Positions 8,643 to 37,011 of a DNA stretch of 37,011 nt are shown in pieces. How positions within the stretch are numbered: position 1 is the first letter of the stretch; every line of letters starts with the position of its first letter. Source of the stretch: Pseudomonas phage YMC12/01/R960; the sequence record MH643777.1. The stretch is one strand, 5' to 3'. The translations under genes and the position numbers were made by a program. Below the pieces are notes generated by a model that was not told where the DNA came from, did no database searches, and saw nothing but the letters and a program-made list of their open reading frames with translations.

Positions 8643-8912
8643 ATGGCCGTATACACCATCACCATCAGCGACACCGAGGGCGGCGTCCTCTTCGGCATGA
8701 AAGGCCCGCAGTTGCACGATTCCGAAGCTTCGAAACTGGCCTATGCCCTCATGGAGGCCTCGAAGTCCATTGGCCGGGAACTCGCCAAGCTGAACGGAGT
8801 TGGCAACGCCGTTTCCTGCGCCTGCGACGAGTGCCTGGCACGCCGCGCTCGCGGCGAGGAACCGCAACAGGAAATCCACTACACCACGGCTAAGAACCGC
8901 ACCGTCCACTGA
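8643..8912 (+). CDS. early hypothetical protein, 89 aa, Cys-containing (CACDEC)
   Basis: ATG 8643 (MAVYTITISD) after TAA 8638-8640. Start is in frame with track ORF 8532..8912. Confidence 0.55.
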   Translation: MAVYTITISDTEGGVLFGMKGPQLHDSEASKLAYALMEASKSIGRELAKLNGVGNAVSCACDECLARRARGEEPQQEIHYTTAKNRTVH

Positions 8913-8918
8913 GCGAAA

Positions 8919-8941
8919 CCGCCCCGGCCTGGCCGGGGCGG
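8919..8941 (+). terminator. GC-rich hairpin (11-bp stem CCGCCCCGGCC / GGCCGGGGCGG) after an early gene
   Basis: Perfect inverted repeat with a 1-nt loop directly downstream of the stop at 8912. No T-tract follows, so function (terminator versus RNA-stability element) is uncertain. Confidence 0.4.
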
Positions 8942-8982
8942 TCTGCCGGACGTGGTGGTCCGGTACTGATGAGCAGCCACCC

Positions 8983-9279
8983 ATGACGAACGAAACCAAG
9001 ACAGACCGCCAGCGCCGCCTGGCGCGGGAACGCCAACGGGCGAAGCGCGAGCGCGATGCCCTGCGCCGCGCTGCGCTGGGCGGTCGCCGCTTCAACATGG
9101 ACATGTACCAGGGAACGGCGGATGCACTCGATCTGATCTGCGCGGCCGGGGGCTTCGCCGAGCCGGCCGAGGCGGTCACCTTGCTCCTACACAACGTTGC
9201 CGAAATTGCAGAGCGTGACGCGTCACGTTTTGCCGAATTGATCCAAAAGAGAAGCCATCCAGGGAGGACCAAGCGATGA
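8983..9279 (+). CDS. hypothetical basic protein, 98 aa
   Basis: ATG 8983 (MTNETKTDRQRRLARERQRAKRE). Start is in frame with track ORF 8800..9279. Confidence 0.5.
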   Translation: MTNETKTDRQRRLARERQRAKRERDALRRAALGGRRFNMDMYQGTADALDLICAAGGFAEPAEAVTLLLHNVAEIAERDASRFAELIQKRSHPGRTKR

Positions 9280-9683: not shown

Positions 9684-10119
9684 GGTGGATCTTCGGGAGG
9701 TCCAGGACATGCTGCCGGATACCGTCCGCGACATGGCCGGACGCATAGGACTGCCGGCCACCCTGGTGGTGGTCGAGCAACTCGGCGGCACGTCCTGGCG
9801 GATAGCCGAGGGCCGGGCGCGGAGGGGCGAAGCGCGCCGGGCTGCGCTGGCCGAACTAGTGGGCAGCGACATCGAGGAGCAGCTCCACACGCACTATCGG
9901 GGCGAAGAAATTTACGTGGCTCGCTGCCACAAGGCGCTGGTACGGTGGCGCGACCTGGAGATCGTCGAGCGCTTCGAGCAGGGCTTGCGTGATGGGCAAA
10001 CCGCCCGTAGCCTGCTCAGCGATCTTGCCCGCAAGTACAACCTGTCCGACCGCTGGATATGGGAGATTGTCAACCGGCCGAGCGAGCCGGCACCGCAGCA
10101 ATCCACCCTGTTCCACTAA
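9670..10119 (+). CDS. mor: Mor-like middle-operon transcription activator (Mor/C family)
   Basis: 149 aa. GEEIYVARCHKALVRWRDLEIVERF resembles the Mor GQVYIPRG...IRDLRIWNDF region. C-terminal HTH-like LSDLARKYNLSDRWIWEIV. Positioned just before the lysis and late genes. Confidence 0.72.
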   Translation: MARSEVDLREVQDMLPDTVRDMAGRIGLPATLVVVEQLGGTSWRIAEGRARRGEARRAALAELVGSDIEEQLHTHYRGEEIYVARCHKALVRWRDLEIVERFEQGLRDGQTARSLLSDLARKYNLSDRWIWEIVNRPSEPAPQQSTLFH

Positions 10120-10140
10120 GCCGGGGCGCAACGCCCCGGC
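10120..10140 (+). terminator. GC-rich hairpin (GCCGGGGCG-CAA-CGCCCCGGC) immediately after the mor stop
   Basis: 9-bp perfect stem with a 3-nt loop right after TAA 10117-10119. Marks the end of the early transcription unit. Confidence 0.4.
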
Positions 10141-10222
10141 CGGCGTCTCCACGCCGATCCTGTCTCAGCCGTCGAAGTCAATCATCTAATTCCCCCTAGC
10201 ATGTCGCCGCCACGATGGCGGC

Positions 10223-10570
10223 ATGAAAGAGTTCAACGCCCCGCATCCACCGCGCAGCCCCCGCGACTACGCCGCCGCCATCCTGGCCGAGCCCAGCCGC
10301 GAGCGTCGTAACGCTCTGCTGGAAGCCTGCCCGGTCAACTGGCAGCCGCTCGTTCGGGCACACGTCGAGGACGCCTTCGCGAAGGTCAAGGCGTATCGCC
10401 AGATGATGGACCACCGCGCCGAGTCGATCCGGCGCGGCCCGCCTGCTGCTCCCCGCGTCACCGACACCGATTTCCGCATATCCAACTACACCAAGTCCGC
10501 CCCGGAGGTAGGCAATGCGCACCTATCCGCAATTCGGGCAGCGCTCGCAACGGAAGCACCAAATGCCTGA
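10223..10570 (+). CDS. hypothetical protein, 115 aa, first gene after mor
   Basis: ATG 10223. A palindromic element overlaps the start (see findings). Confidence 0.55.
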   Translation: MKEFNAPHPPRSPRDYAAAILAEPSRERRNALLEACPVNWQPLVRAHVEDAFAKVKAYRQMMDHRAESIRRGPPAAPRVTDTDFRISNYTKSAPEVGNAHLSAIRAALATEAPNA

Positions 10571-16219: not shown

Positions 16220-17505
16220 TGGCAACGCCAACCGAGGCCGATCTGCGGGCCATCTTCGCCATGCGGCCGGAGGCCGCTATCGAGTACCTGGAGCGCAAGG
16301 GATTCGCCATTACCTGGAACTGGCACGATGTTGACGCGGCCACCCATGCCCGAGCGCTGACGGTGGCCAAGGCGGCACGCCTGGACGTGCTCCAAGACAT
16401 CCGCGACGCCCTGGTCGATAACCTGGAACGTGGCGGAACGCTGCGCGACTTCCAGCGCAACCTGCGCCCGATCCTGGAGGCCAAGGGCTGGTGGGGACGC
16501 CAGATAGTGGTTGCGCCGGACGGCGGCGCCGAGGTCGCCCAGCTCGGCAGCCCGCGCCGGCTGGAAACGATCTACCAGACCAACATGCAGTCGGCCTACA
16601 TGGCCGGGCGCTATGCCGCCGCATACGAGGCCAGGGAAACTCACCCTTACTGGATGTATGTGGCCGTCATGGACAGCGTCACCCGGCCCAGCCATGCGGC
16701 GCTACATGGCAAGGTGTTCCGCTGGGACGACCCGATCTGGCAGCACATCATGCCGCCGAATGGCTACAACTGCCGGTGCCGAATCGTTCCGTTGACGGCG
16801 GCCGCTGTGCGTCGCCGTGGTCTGACGGTCGAATCCAGCGTCGGCAAGACCGGCCAAGTGACCGTCGAGACGGGCGTAGACAAGCGGACGGGGGAGATTC
16901 GGGAGCAGACCTTGACCACCCTGGAGACGACCGACCGGGCCGGTCGGAAGATCCAATTTCGCCCCGATGCCGGGTTCGACGGCAGCCCGATACAGAGCGC
17001 CCTGATGGACCAGGTGCTGTACAACAAGGCCGAGCGCACCCTGGGAGCGCCTGCCGCCCTCGGCGAGGTCCAGGACGTGCTCCTGGACCCGGTACGCCAG
17101 CGCGCCTGGCAGGCGTTTGTGGACCGCTCCACGTCGCCCCAGGGACAGACGATGTCGGTCGGCGTCCTCGATCCGACCGACATCACCTATGCGGCTGCCC
17201 AGGGTGCCCAGCTCCAGGCTGGCGTGGTATCGGCCAGCGACACCGTGATTCGTAACAGCTCGGTCGCTCGCGAGCAGCTGGCGAACCTGCCGCAGCGCCT
17301 GGCCCAGCCCGCTATGGTGCTGTGGGAGCGTGGCAGCGAGTCGCTGGTCTATGTCGTCCAGGATGGCGACTCTACCCTGGCGGTTCGGCTGCGCGGTGGC
17401 ATCTATGGGCCGGGCCAAATGGAGAACATCAGCCAGGTTACTGAGGTGACGATGGAAAGCATCGACGACGGGCTCGCCCTGGGCCGTTACAGGAGGGTTC
17501 GCTAA
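16219..17505 (+). CDS. Mu F-like head morphogenesis protein (gp30 family)
   Basis: 428 aa. TGATG overlap with the portal stop. Conserved position. Confidence 0.88.
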   Translation: MATPTEADLRAIFAMRPEAAIEYLERKGFAITWNWHDVDAATHARALTVAKAARLDVLQDIRDALVDNLERGGTLRDFQRNLRPILEAKGWWGRQIVVAPDGGAEVAQLGSPRRLETIYQTNMQSAYMAGRYAAAYEARETHPYWMYVAVMDSVTRPSHAALHGKVFRWDDPIWQHIMPPNGYNCRCRIVPLTAAAVRRRGLTVESSVGKTGQVTVETGVDKRTGEIREQTLTTLETTDRAGRKIQFRPDAGFDGSPIQSALMDQVLYNKAERTLGAPAALGEVQDVLLDPVRQRAWQAFVDRSTSPQGQTMSVGVLDPTDITYAAAQGAQLQAGVVSASDTVIRNSSVAREQLANLPQRLAQPAMVLWERGSESLVYVVQDGDSTLAVRLRGGIYGPGQMENISQVTEVTMESIDDGLALGRYRRVR

Positions 17506-17972
17506 TGGCCAATCGCATCGAGCTGGAACTGGTGGACCGCGAGGTCCAGGAGCGCCTGGCGGCGCTCTACGCGGCAGTAACCGACACCCTGCCGCTGATG
17601 CGCGGCATCGCTGCTGAGCTGCTGGCCGAGACGGAGTTTGCATTCATGGACGAGGGGCCGGGATGGCCCCAGTTGAGCCCCGTTACCGTTGCAGCGCGAG
17701 CGGCGAAGGGGCGCGGCGCGCATCCGATTCTCCAGGTCACCAACGCCCTGGCGCGCTCGATCACAACCCGCGCCGACCGTGACCAGGCGCAGATCGGCTC
17801 CAATCTGACCTACGCAGCTATCCAGCAGCTGGGCGGCCAGGCTGGACGAGGCCGTAAGGTGACAATCCCAGCGCGCCCGTATCTGCCGGTCCTCAGAAAC
17901 GGCCAGCTCAAGCCAAGCGCCCGCGATGCGGTCCTGGACGTCCTTCTAGCTGCTCTATCCCAGGGGCGTTAG
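17505..17972 (+). CDS. Mu G-like virion morphogenesis protein
   Basis: 155 aa. TAATG overlap with F. The anti-CRISPR locus follows, as in JBD/D3112 phages. Confidence 0.85.
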   Translation: MANRIELELVDREVQERLAALYAAVTDTLPLMRGIAAELLAETEFAFMDEGPGWPQLSPVTVAARAAKGRGAHPILQVTNALARSITTRADRDQAQIGSNLTYAAIQQLGGQAGRGRKVTIPARPYLPVLRNGQLKPSARDAVLDVLLAALSQGR

Positions 17973-17990
17973 GGGAAATGAATTCGGACA

Positions 17991-18084
17991 AGCGGCACAT
18001 TGTGCCTATTGCGGATTAGGCACAATGTGCCTAATCTAGCGTCATGCCAGCCACAACGGCGAGGCGAACCCAAGGAGAGACACC
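17991..18084 (+). promoter_or_regulatory. anti-CRISPR promoter with two 13-bp palindromic operators (putative Aca1 sites) and RBS
   Basis: IR1 GGCACATTGTGCC at 17994-18006. IR2 GGCACAATGTGCC at 18019-18031. Candidate -35 TTGCGG 18009-18014 and -10 TAATCT 18032-18037 with a 17-bp spacer. RBS GGAGAG 18073-18078. Confidence 0.65.
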
Positions 18085-18378
18085 ATGACTAAGACCGCAC
18101 AAATGATCGCTCAGCAGCACAAAGATACTGTCGCAGCGTGCGAAGCCGCCGAAGCCATCGCTATCGCAAAAGATCAGGTCTGGGATGGCGAGGGCTATAC
18201 CAAGTACACGTTCGACGACAACAGCGTTCTGATCCAGTCGGGCACTACTCAGTACGCGATGGATGCCGACGACGCAGACAGCATCAAAGGCTATGCGGAC
18301 TGGCTGGACGACGAAGCTCGCACCGCAGAAGATTCAGAAATCAAGCGCCTGCTCGAAGCGGTCGAAGATGAAGCCTGA
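18085..18378 (+). CDS. acrIF2: anti-CRISPR protein, AcrIF2-like acidic DNA mimic (type I-F inhibitor)
   Basis: 97 aa (91 aa from the internal Met). MIAQQHKDTVAACEAAEAIAIAKDQVWDGEGYTKYTFDDNSVLIQSGTTQYAMDADDADSIKGYADWLDDEAR... matches recalled AcrIF2 (D3112 gp30) nearly residue for residue. Very acidic (D/E-rich). Sits between Mu G-like and I-like genes, upstream of aca1. Confidence 0.75.
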   Translation: MTKTAQMIAQQHKDTVAACEAAEAIAIAKDQVWDGEGYTKYTFDDNSVLIQSGTTQYAMDADDADSIKGYADWLDDEARTAEDSEIKRLLEAVEDEA

Positions 18379-18589
18379 CGCCTCCAACCACAATCCAGAC
18401 CCGCGCTACCTGCGCGGGCTGCTCAAGAAAGCCGGCATCAGCCAGCGGCGCGCAGCCGAGCTGCTCGGCCTCAGTGACAGGGTTATGCGCTATTACCTGA
18501 GCGAGGACGTCAAGGAGGGCTACCGTCCCGCGCCGTATACCGTCCAGTTCGCCCTGGAGTGCCTGGCGAGCGACCCGCCATCTGCGTGA
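18368..18589 (+). CDS. aca1: Aca1 anti-CRISPR-associated HTH repressor
   Basis: 73 aa. MKPDASNHNPDPRYLRGLLKKAGISQRRAAELLGLSDRVMRYYLSEDVKEGYRPAPYTVQFALECLASDPPSA matches the recalled Aca1 of JBD30-type phages. Start overlaps the acr stop (ATGAAGCCTGA). Confidence 0.85.
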   Translation: MKPDASNHNPDPRYLRGLLKKAGISQRRAAELLGLSDRVMRYYLSEDVKEGYRPAPYTVQFALECLASDPPSA

Positions 18590-18808
18590 TCACCTGATCC
18601 GCCCGCAAACGCGCTACACGTGCCGAAACGGGGTTAGCCGCTACCTCGCATCAGAGTCGGTGCGTTAACCCCGTTAGAACCCCGTTAGAAATCGTTCCAT
18701 CGCCATCCGCGTGCCAGGGCTTGGCCAGAAGATGGTGCCGGACGGTTTCCGCAGTCGTTGAACCCCTTCCCGTAACCGCCGCGCTCGACCGTCGCCACCA
18801 TTGGCGGC

Positions 18809-19915
18809 ATGAAGAAGAACCGCCTACACGTCGCCATCGCCGCCTGCTCGTTCCAGCTCCCCAAGCTGGAGGACGGCAGCGCCTGGATTCAAGTTACGCC
18901 TGCCGGTGAGTTCTGGCCCATGGATGGGCGCCCTATGGATGTGCCGGGCTGGCGGATCGATGCCGACAGTGCCGCCGCAGTGATCGAGCGCGCACGGTCG
19001 CGCAAGACTCCGCCCGTCCTGGACTACGAGCACCAGACCCTAAAGAAAGAGCAGAACGGCCAGCCCGCGCCCGCTGCCGGCCGTTTCCTGGACTTCGAAT
19101 GGCGCGAAGGCTCCGGCCTGTGGGGGCGTGTCGAATACACCGCCCGCGCCGCGAAGCTGATCGAGGACGGCGAGTACCTCTACTTCAGCCCCGTCTTCAG
19201 CTACGCCCCGGACGGCACGGTCCTCTCCATCCTCATGGGCGCAATGACAAATGACCCCGCCATCGACGGTCTGGAGCCCCTCGCACGCCGAGCGGCCGCG
19301 ACCTTTGGCCTCTACCACCCCGACGAGGAAACCCCTGTGGATGAACTCCTGAAAGCCATCATCGCGGCCCTGTCGCTGAAAGAAGGCACGACCGAGGCAG
19401 AGGCCATTGCGGCCCTGACCGCCCTGAAGCCGGCCCTAGACGCCCAAGCGACCAACCTGGCCAAGCTGCGCGAAACCCTCGGCCTGGCCCAGGACGCGGA
19501 CGTCGAGCAGATCGCCGCCGCCACCGCCCAGCTGAAGGTCGCCGCCCCCGGTAACCCCGACCCGGCGAAGTGGGCGCCCGTTGAAGCTGTCACCCAGCTC
19601 CAGGGCCAGGTCGCGGCGCTGACCTCTCGCCTCAACGGCGGCGAGCTGGACGGCCTGATCAACAGCGCTATCCAGGAGGGCCGACTCATTCCGTCCATGG
19701 AGCCCTGGGCGCGTGAATACGGCGCCAAGGACTTGGCCGGCTTGAAGAGCTACCTGGGCCAGGCCAAGCCCATCGCCGCCCTGACCCAACAGCAGAGCGC
19801 CGGGCGTACCTCGGTGCCTACCTCGGTTGACCAGCTGGACGAGGCCGCCCTCGCGGTTTGCTCGGCTATGCAGATCAAGCCGGAGGATTACCTCAAGACC
19901 CTGAAAGGCCAGTAA
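18809..19915 (+). CDS. head protease / scaffold (Mu I/Z-like)
   Basis: 368 aa. N-terminal domain is Mu I-family-like. C-terminal Ala/Leu/Gln-rich region is scaffold-like with predicted coiled coil. First gene after the acr locus. Confidence 0.82.
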   Translation: MKKNRLHVAIAACSFQLPKLEDGSAWIQVTPAGEFWPMDGRPMDVPGWRIDADSAAAVIERARSRKTPPVLDYEHQTLKKEQNGQPAPAAGRFLDFEWREGSGLWGRVEYTARAAKLIEDGEYLYFSPVFSYAPDGTVLSILMGAMTNDPAIDGLEPLARRAAATFGLYHPDEETPVDELLKAIIAALSLKEGTTEAEAIAALTALKPALDAQATNLAKLRETLGLAQDADVEQIAAATAQLKVAAPGNPDPAKWAPVEAVTQLQGQVAALTSRLNGGELDGLINSAIQEGRLIPSMEPWAREYGAKDLAGLKSYLGQAKPIAALTQQQSAGRTSVPTSVDQLDEAALAVCSAMQIKPEDYLKTLKGQ

Positions 19916-36391: not shown

Positions 36392-36643
36392 ATGTGCGGA
36401 GTAGATAGGGATGTTGGTATGAACGAGATGCTTAGACGGAGACTGCGGGCGGAGCTGCTAGAGGTCGGTTTCCTAAACCAGTGCTGCCTTGACCTGATGG
36501 ATACCATGGCGTCCGAATTCAGCCTCTCGCAGGATCAGCAGGAATGCTTCGAACAGCTGAGCCGATTCCTACGGGAGGGCATCGGCAAGCTGACCGCTCT
36601 GTCTGAGCGGGTAGCCGATGGCGATATCGTCGTCCTGTGCTGA
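36392..36643 (+). CDS. hypothetical right-end protein with lower GC (moron-like), 83 aa; alternative start 36419
   Basis: Codon usage is AT-richer than the rest of the phage. Last ORF before the inferred right end. Cys-containing. Confidence 0.45.
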   Translation: MCGVDRDVGMNEMLRRRLRAELLEVGFLNQCCLDLMDTMASEFSLSQDQQECFEQLSRFLREGIGKLTALSERVADGDIVVLC

Positions 36644-36730: not shown

Positions 36731-37011
36731 GCCGACCGCAGTCTCGACCTGGGCCGCGGGCCACTGTTGCGCGCGCTGCTGGCGACGCTCGGAGACGGCA
36801 GCCAGCGGTTGTTGCTGGTGATCCACCATCTGGCGGTGGACGGGGTTTCCTGGCGGATCCTGCTCGAAGACCTGCAGACCGCCTACCGCCAGTTGCAGGC
36901 CGGCCAGGCCGTTGCGCTACCCGCCAAGACCAGCGCCTTCAAGGCGTGGGCCGAACGCTTGCAGGCGCATGCCCGCGACGGCGGCCTGGAGGGCGAGCGC
37001 GGCTACTGGCT
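36731..37011 (+). CDS. host nonribosomal peptide synthetase fragment (condensation domain, partial at both ends)
   Basis: In-frame ...[48 protein letters not shown]... contains the C-domain core motif HHxxxDG(W/V)S preceded by the LDLxxGPLLR motif. High GC3. Confidence 0.75.

Follow-up and report, generated by a model that had tools for sequence, protein, structure and literature searches.

Positions 17973-18606 of the sequence analysed here (plus strand, 634 bp) form, with a probability of about 95%, a self-contained anti-CRISPR "moron" cassette composed of acrIF2 and aca1 and carried by a D3112-like prophage. Throughout, "the window" denotes the whole stretch of DNA that was analysed, 37,011 nucleotides in length. 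The locus is real but ordinary, because it is identical, base for base, to the acrIF2-aca1 locus of the published phage MP29, which has already been described and assayed. It is a textbook operon and holds no new biology, as every one of its components has been published, including the newest of them, an RNA motif bound by Aca1. Nothing in the sequence evidence speaks against the explanation as an AcrIF2-Aca1 operon. The sequence of every component matches that of an experimentally characterised counterpart; the biochemical activities are inferred from published work, as are the precise promoter hexamers and the start site of transcription discussed below.

The assignment flags the prophage, and the phage that is induced from it, as probably able to neutralise type I-F CRISPR-Cas. 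In a strain that carries it, the annotation bears on the interpretation of spacer matches, on phage-host prediction, on Cascade-Cas3 editing and on CRISPR-based antimicrobials. The existing reference annotation of the locus is poor: in RefSeq, the aca1 of both MP29 and D3112 is given as a 34-aa fragment (mis-annotated in MP29 as "ORF32"), and acrIF2 is probably six codons short.

Limits and coding content of the cassette

The cassette begins directly after the stop codon of a Mu G-like virion morphogenesis gene (17505-17972, plus strand; Pfam Phage_tail_S, E 2e-25), which lies outside it, and its limits were set by comparison with the acr-less phage MP38. In that phage, the sequence starting at position 18607 of the window (AAACGC...) comes immediately after the G stop codon, and the inserted cassette is therefore 17973-18606. 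Positions 18607-18808 belong to the phage backbone, as its normal spacer between G and I, and the downstream neighbour, also outside the cassette, is a Mu I-like protease/scaffold gene (18809-19915, plus strand; Pfam Mu-like_Pro, E 2e-100, the match beginning at residue 27 of the open reading frame). The part of the cassette that holds the promoter and acrIF2 has a GC content of 55%, compared to 64.5% for the whole window, as expected for an acquired moron. The preliminary description had recognised the position between G and I as the classic acr locus of phages of this kind, which is borne out by the flanking Pfam matches, by the same layout in MP29, D3112 and JBD30, and by the empty site in MP38. 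This G-I anti-CRISPR locus has been described for these phages (PMC3993853), and aca1 stands at the 3' end of the G-I cassette. A hairpin with tandem repeats at 18627-18688 was considered as a terminator or insulator of the cassette and rejected, as it has no T-run, a fold z-score of only -1.7, and is present directly after G in MP38. Since MP38 lacks an acr gene, these repeats belong to the phage backbone and not to the cassette.

The first gene, acrIF2 (18085-18378, plus strand), has an ATG start and encodes 97 aa. The very acidic protein that had been noted from this open reading frame is indeed present, with 23 aspartate and glutamate residues versus 8 lysine and arginine residues, a computed pI of 4.05 and a computed net charge of -15, and in both size and acidity it falls within the AcrIF2 family (about 90-97 aa, strongly acidic). 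It matches the Pfam model AcrF2 (PF25704) over the full model length (positions 1-90 of 90; E 5.6e-60, 200 bits against a cut-off of 27), the D3112 gp30 chain 5yhr (E 2e-55, with 91 of 96 aligned residues identical), the PDB entries 6b47, 5uz9 and 8dfs (E about 1e-51) and PHROG 19304. These matches identify the acidic protein as AcrIF2, the name it had been given in the preliminary description; the peptide quoted there agrees with the sequence as far as ...DDEAR. Relative to D3112 gp30, the reference protein of the family, there are five substitutions, all within the C-terminal helix (T80, D83, K87, A92 and D95, numbered on the 97-aa form, where D3112 has S, A, E, S and E), together with an added terminal Ala. 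The AcrIF2 fold has been described as a sandwich of two helices, four strands and two helices (PMC5859409), and the same fold is implied for the window protein by its identity of about 95% to the solved chains 5yhr, 6b47 and 5uz9. The exact 97-aa protein was called in at least 165 blocks of public assemblies, spread over many different assemblies.

The second gene, aca1 (18368-18589, plus strand), encodes a 73-aa helix-turn-helix (HTH) repressor. The acr stop codon, TGA at 18376-18378, lies inside the aca1 open reading frame, and the overlap of acr stop and aca1 start reported earlier is thereby seen to span 11 nt from the ATG at 18368. The Aca1 structures PDB 7c0g and 7fa3 both match the 73-aa protein (E 1e-43), which is 95% identical to JBD30 gp36. 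The DNA-contact residues of JBD30 Aca1 have been defined by mutagenesis or crystallography (PMC8633003), and in an alignment to the PDB Aca1 the equivalents of R44, V45, R47, Y48, Y49, R59, S42, R22 and Q32 (JBD30 numbering) are all unchanged; in the window protein, the counterparts of R44, V45, R47, Y48, R59, S42 and Y49 are R38, V39, R41, Y42, R53, S36 and Y43. Judged by this identity and by the retention of all published DNA contacts, the downstream HTH protein is Aca1, in agreement with its first naming. Its match to HTH_24, the Pfam family assigned to Aca1 in the literature (PMC9410906; PMC3993853), is under the cut-off (17.5 versus 21.9 bits), and NCBIfam contains no model for either AcrIF2 or Aca1. 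Taken over both open reading frames, the comparison with AcrIF2 and Aca1 references that had been proposed as a check returned E-values from 1e-43 to 6e-60.

The identity to MP29 is 100% over window positions 17973-18808, corresponding to MP29 17866-18701 (NC_011613), and JBDs5 is equally identical over this segment, with D3112, JD024 and others at about 97%. The promoter, IR1, IR2, the leader, acrIF2, aca1 and the downstream spacer are thus all the same as in the ORF30-aca1 locus of MP29, which occupies the same G-I position. MP29 with its acrIF2 is one of five phages for which plaquing on CRISPR-active PA14 has been measured, and in its case plaquing depends on acrIF2 (bioRxiv 10.1101/279141). 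D3112 shares the promoter, operators and leader of the window with a single substitution, but has its acrIF2 and aca1 separated by 160 additional bp (orf31) that are absent from the window, and its aca1 apparently starts at a GTG one codon earlier than the ATG used here. We take D3112 orf31 (gp31) to be the type I-E inhibitor AcrIE4; with the 160-bp insert missing, the window locus lacks any further acr gene of the kind of AcrIE4.

Operators, promoter and leader hairpin

An inverted-repeat search placed two candidate Aca1 operators upstream of acrIF2, both on the plus strand as given here. IR2 (18015-18035, ATTAGGCACAATGTGCCTAAT) is identical to the 21-bp IR2 of JBD30, which has been co-crystallised with Aca1 and has a Kd of 74 nM by ITC (PMC8633003). 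IR1 (17990-18010, AAGCGGCACATTGTGCCTATT) is the 21-bp JBD30 IR1 used for ITC, save for one central spacer base that is changed from C to T (PMC8633003). Published work has Aca1 dimers binding IR2 and repressing the strong acr promoter, with IR1 competing for Aca1 (PMC8633003; PMC9410906), and in the window IR2 would be the repressing operator in the core promoter and IR1 an upstream decoy or titrating site. The exact palindrome GGCACNNNGTGCC occurs at just two sites in the 37 kb, both no more than 90 nt upstream of the acr open reading frame, where 0.13 sites are expected from shuffles. The operon therefore appears to carry the cognate palindromic operator of its repressor, with the half-site GGCAC, within its own promoter.

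The putative promoter consists of a -35 hexamer TTGCGG (18009-18014, plus strand), a 17-nt spacer filled by IR2, and a -10 hexamer TAATCT (18032-18037, plus strand), which overlaps the right arm of IR2. A sigma-70 consensus scan of 17800-18900 reported no promoter, because both hexamers match the consensus at just three of six positions, and these weak hexamers were assigned by alignment and by distances given in the literature. TTGCGG aligns with TTGACA in the promoter of a Rhodanobacter homologue of the operon, and TAATCT, which is kept in D3112, in JBD30 and in non-Mu prophages, aligns with the Rhodanobacter TACTAT. In addition to this register, the assignment is supported by the published position of the transcription start site, about 10 nt past the DNA motif in acr-aca1 operons (PMC13551039). 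The scan of 17800-18900 reported no intrinsic terminator after aca1 on the plus strand.

In the leader, folding predicted a 5'-UTR hairpin at 18046-18065 (plus strand; GCC-A-GCC-ACAAC-GGC-GA-GGC), with a 3-bp lower stem, one unpaired base and a 3-bp upper stem, that ends 19 nt before the ATG at 18085. The stability of this hairpin is unremarkable on its own (z -0.73). The sequence of the leader and hairpin is identical in JBD30, and the stems are retained in Rhodanobacter. In 2026, an Aca1-binding RNA motif was reported for 207 acr-aca1 operons; it begins directly after the transcription start site, ends about 20 nt ahead of the acr start codon, and JBD30 Aca1 binds it with a Kd of about 61 nM (PMC13551039). 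The hairpin at 18046-18065 fits this motif both in its shape and in how far it lies from the start codon, and we regard it as a predicted Aca1-binding element. The leader had also been entertained as a new RNA element, a candidate that was rejected because it equals the Aca1 RNA motif already published.

The same arrangement recurs, with exchanges of its parts, in more distant relatives. The acrIF1-aca1 operon of JBD30, the model for regulation by Aca1, agrees with the window in IR2, the -10 hexamer, the 5'-UTR hairpin and the Shine-Dalgarno sequence, and has its acr ATG at the equivalent place, whereas its acr gene is the unrelated acrIF1, its IR1 differs in one spacer base, and its Aca1 is a 79-aa protein with an N-terminus six residues longer than that of the window Aca1. 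Non-Mu P. aeruginosa prophages with a lambda-like tail and a lysis module (L007, L008, L009 and L011) share the exact 97-aa AcrIF2, the -10 hexamer, the leader and the Shine-Dalgarno sequence. Their homology spans just window positions 18032-18567, and they differ from the window in an Aca1 that is 71% identical, with the recognition helix SDRVMRYY replaced by SWPGFRNY, in the upstream operator and in the genomic context. The Rhodanobacter homologue, from a prophage of Rhodanobacter sp. BL-MT-08 (L012), keeps the order of -35, palindromic operator, -10, leader hairpin, acr gene and overlapping aca1-like gene, with an Acr protein 76% identical to the window AcrIF2 and an Aca1-like protein 52% identical to the window Aca1. 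It has an operator of its own (AGGAACAATAGTTCCT) and is located in the early or replication region of its phage, not between G and I.

The start codon of acrIF2

The acr open reading frame offers two in-frame starts, the ATG at 18085, which gives the 97-aa form, and an ATG at 18103, which gives a 91-aa form beginning MIAQQ. The preliminary description had argued that the ribosome-binding site favours the longer MTKTAQ start, and this choice was upheld. The Shine-Dalgarno sequence AAGGAG (18072-18077, plus strand, read from the sequence) stands 7 nt before the ATG at 18085, while none is found ahead of 18103. JBD30 keeps this Shine-Dalgarno sequence ahead of its own acr gene, the well-characterised acrIF1 (78 aa), and the acrIF1 ATG that it serves aligns exactly with 18085, at the end of the shared leader. 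AcrIF2 homologues at 54-76% identity, including that of Rhodanobacter, have N-termini of the form M[S/T/N]KIAQQ or MKIAQ, and carry Q, E, H or K where the window AcrIF2 has Met7, encoded at 18103. The spacing between RNA motif and start codon also suits 18085. Finally, independent gene callers gave 97 aa for the acr gene (in 165 blocks) and 73 aa for aca1, and the crystallised chain 5yhr is the 97-aa form with the MTKTAQ extension included. As these five independent lines (Shine-Dalgarno sequence, JBD30 alignment, homologue N-termini, RNA-motif distance, and gene callers with 5yhr) favour 18085, this is most likely the native start.

The opposing case is that the true product is the 91-aa protein from 18103 and that the upstream ATG goes unused. 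It can draw on RefSeq, where MP29 ORF30 and D3112 orf30 both begin at the equivalent of 18103, on the Pfam and PHROG models, which begin at the same Met, and on published cryo-EM in which the 90-aa form works (PDB 5uz9, 6b47). We consider it improbable, since it would leave the start at 18103 without a Shine-Dalgarno sequence while AAGGAG stands 7 nt before 18085, and is contradicted by the JBD30 acrIF1 start, which aligns with 18085 instead, by divergent homologues that keep the upstream K-[T/I]-A-Q and replace the Met itself, by the RNA motif-to-start distance and by the 97-aa calls in 165 blocks.

The activity of the 90-aa form in published work does mean that the six extra residues are dispensable for inhibition. 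The difference between 97 aa and the 90 aa of D3112 gp30 is made up of these six N-terminal residues and one C-terminal Ala, and, counted from the MIAQQ start, the extension at the N-terminus has six residues (MTKTAQ), one fewer than the seven originally given. With the start at 18085, it is our fairly confident view that native AcrIF2 has 97 aa and that its family-wide conserved K-[T/I]-A-Q segment could add stability or an extra contact. This N-terminal segment is conserved in homologues with as little as 54% identity and also in other genera, and it is absent from the 90-aa reference entry, the RefSeq annotations and the Pfam and PHROG models. If true, the 97-aa reading would amount to a correction at the level of annotation and not to a new system, the form having already been crystallised (5yhr), and any contribution of the N-terminus would have escaped the cryo-EM work, which used a truncated or tagged form.

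Mode of action and host context

Read against the literature, the operon would work as follows. On phage entry the promoter would fire and yield a single bicistronic mRNA, from whose first cistron AcrIF2 would be made, most likely in its 97-aa form. AcrIF2 has been seen wedged into the Csy complex of type I-F, between the thumb of Cas7f.6 and the hook of Cas8f (PMC5859409), and in this position it would sterically block access of the target dsDNA and of the PAM to the complex. The second cistron, with its 11-nt translational overlap, would give Aca1, the predicted dimeric HTH repressor, which on binding IR2 between -35 and -10 would shut the promoter down. IR1 and the 5'-UTR hairpin would be further Aca1 sites, thought to titrate or fine-tune the repressor.

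The label "DNA mimic", which the preliminary description attached to AcrIF2, stands in part: it is backed by one of two cryo-EM papers and disputed by the other group (PMC5859409). A broader version of the idea would make the acidic protein a DNA mimic of general action, like Ocr or ArdA, that also blocks other DNA-binding defences and is not a dedicated Csy inhibitor. A net charge of -15 would suit such a protein, as would the pseudo-helical distribution of acidic residues that one structural paper sees (PMC5859409). It is nevertheless very improbable, as the published structures show a specific Cas7f.6/Cas8f wedge, the other cryo-EM group denies AcrF2 any DNA mimicry (PMC5859409), and a lysogen of MP29 is inactive even against type I-E, a related system (PMC3993853). 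A different objection accepts the AcrIF2-Aca1 operon as intact and supposes that it has no target in the present host, so that the cassette would come into play only on infection of other strains, and the lysogen would not be "disarmed". Its chances fall somewhat short of even. Type I-F systems are carried by only a minority of P. aeruginosa isolates, and the only host DNA in the window, 45 + 281 nt, is part of an NRPS gene (condensation domain), with no cas genes anywhere within the window. The exact AcrIF2 is moreover found in at least 165 collection blocks across many assemblies, and is therefore widespread regardless of host genotype. Disarming of the lysogen, as first proposed, presupposes a type I-F system in the host; the identity of the operon and its mechanism as an inhibitor of the Csy complex are unaffected by this point.

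The window as a whole contains a complete Casadabanvirus (D3112-like) transposable prophage of the Pseudomonas aeruginosa group. The phage ends are at 46 and 36730, with TGT at the start and ACA at the end, and TGT...ACA ends have been reported for the D3112 group (PMC5977238). Together with the bacterial NRPS gene on either side, these ends confirm the earlier reading of the sequence as a prophage. The prophage is a mosaic that is 97-98% identical, with gaps, to JBD5, MP29 and relatives. In searches for the host site, an exact 60-mer from the right flank was not found among genome contigs, the left junction was not found among viral contigs, and the right-end open reading frame led only to contigs of phage length, without host flanks. 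A degenerate pattern matched only P. paraeruginosa ATCC 9027. The prophage junctions are without a target-site duplication. Upstream of the cassette, a type II hammerhead ribozyme is located at 8911-8982.

Anti-CRISPR genes in other prophage backgrounds

An exact match to the 97-amino acid AcrIF2 protein is encoded in four non-Mu prophages of P. aeruginosa (L007, L008, L009 and L011; about 9948-10502), where the gene adjoins lysis and tail-fibre genes. The Aca1 variant of these four prophages differs from that of the window, sharing 71% identity with it and carrying a recognition helix altered to SWPGFRNY, and the upstream sequence also differs, containing the imperfect palindrome GGTGTAC-AAT-GTTACCC. 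This suggests that distinct classes of Aca1-operator specificity have been swapped, while the acr gene and leader stay constant.

Outside Pseudomonas, a homologue of AcrF2 with 76% identity was found in a prophage of Rhodanobacter sp. BL-MT-08 (CP167872; L012, 5935-6515), in which the acr locus lies within the phage replication region. As in the window, the homologue is overlapped by an Aca1-like gene (52% identity), and the stems of the leader hairpin are the same. The promoter of this locus is near-consensus, with the operator AGGAACAATAGTTCCT placed between TTGACA and TACTAT.

Reference annotations and a conserved element downstream of aca1

In the RefSeq annotations of the related phages MP29 and D3112, aca1 is reported as a 34-amino acid "ORF32" called from an internal methionine (window position 18485; fragment 18485-18589), and there is a PHROG family (18309) corresponding to this fragment. 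The same two records place the first codon of the I protease at the counterpart of window position 18935, whereas JBD30 is annotated from an upstream ATG equivalent to 18809, and the Pfam Mu-like_Pro match starts at residue 27 of the open reading frame beginning at 18809. The RefSeq calls for aca1 and for the I protease start in MP29 and D3112 (18485-18589 and 18809-18934 in the window) are annotation errors.

Within the G-I spacer of the phage backbone, a conserved hairpin is located at 18627-18688, with arms AACGGGGTTA and TAACCCCGTT separated by 29 nucleotides. The spacer also contains two tandem copies of AACCCCGTTAG, bringing the occurrences of this motif to three. No T-run was found at the hairpin, and its fold z-score is -1.7. 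As the element is common to D3112, JBD30 and the acr-less phage MP38, it lies outside the acr cassette, and it may act as a regulatory site for the late head operon.

A hammerhead ribozyme upstream of gemA and mor

On the plus strand at 8911-8982, a type II hammerhead ribozyme was detected through Rfam model RF02276 with a score of 69.9 bits (E 1e-12; gathering score 37) and with the core sequences CUGAUGA, GAAA and GUC all intact. It occupies exactly the space that separates the stop codon of an 89-amino acid gene (8910-8912) from the ATG at 8983 of a 98-amino acid gene that is itself upstream of gemA and mor, and cleavage is predicted after C8943. At least 120 Casadabanvirus records, DMS3, JBD26 and H70 among them, carry this stretch in conserved form and leave it without annotation. 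Hammerheads are already known from prophages generally (PMC3088659); our literature search found no paper tying them to D3112 or DMS3 phages.

Prophage junctions and the last phage gene

The prophage junctions fall at 45/46 and 36730/36731, and the flanks (1-45 and 36731-37011) are bacterial DNA. The right flank codes for a condensation or epimerisation domain of a non-ribosomal peptide synthetase (NRPS; Pfam PF00668, E 7e-22) and shares 95-96% identity with P. paraeruginosa ATCC 9027. The prophage appears to have inserted within a peptide-synthetase gene. A 5-bp target-site duplication is absent at the junctions (GACGG versus GCCGA), and in ATCC 9027 the left flank does not adjoin the right-flank match. 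This suggests a rearrangement, a strain-specific order of NRPS modules, or flanks derived from different junctions.

Finally, the last phage open reading frame (36392-36643) encodes an 83-amino acid protein assigned to Pfam DUF7364, and its exact sequence is rare, occurring in only four contigs. One assembly has the entire phage as a separate contig of 36,742 bp, as usually happens to transposable prophages when genomes are assembled from short reads.
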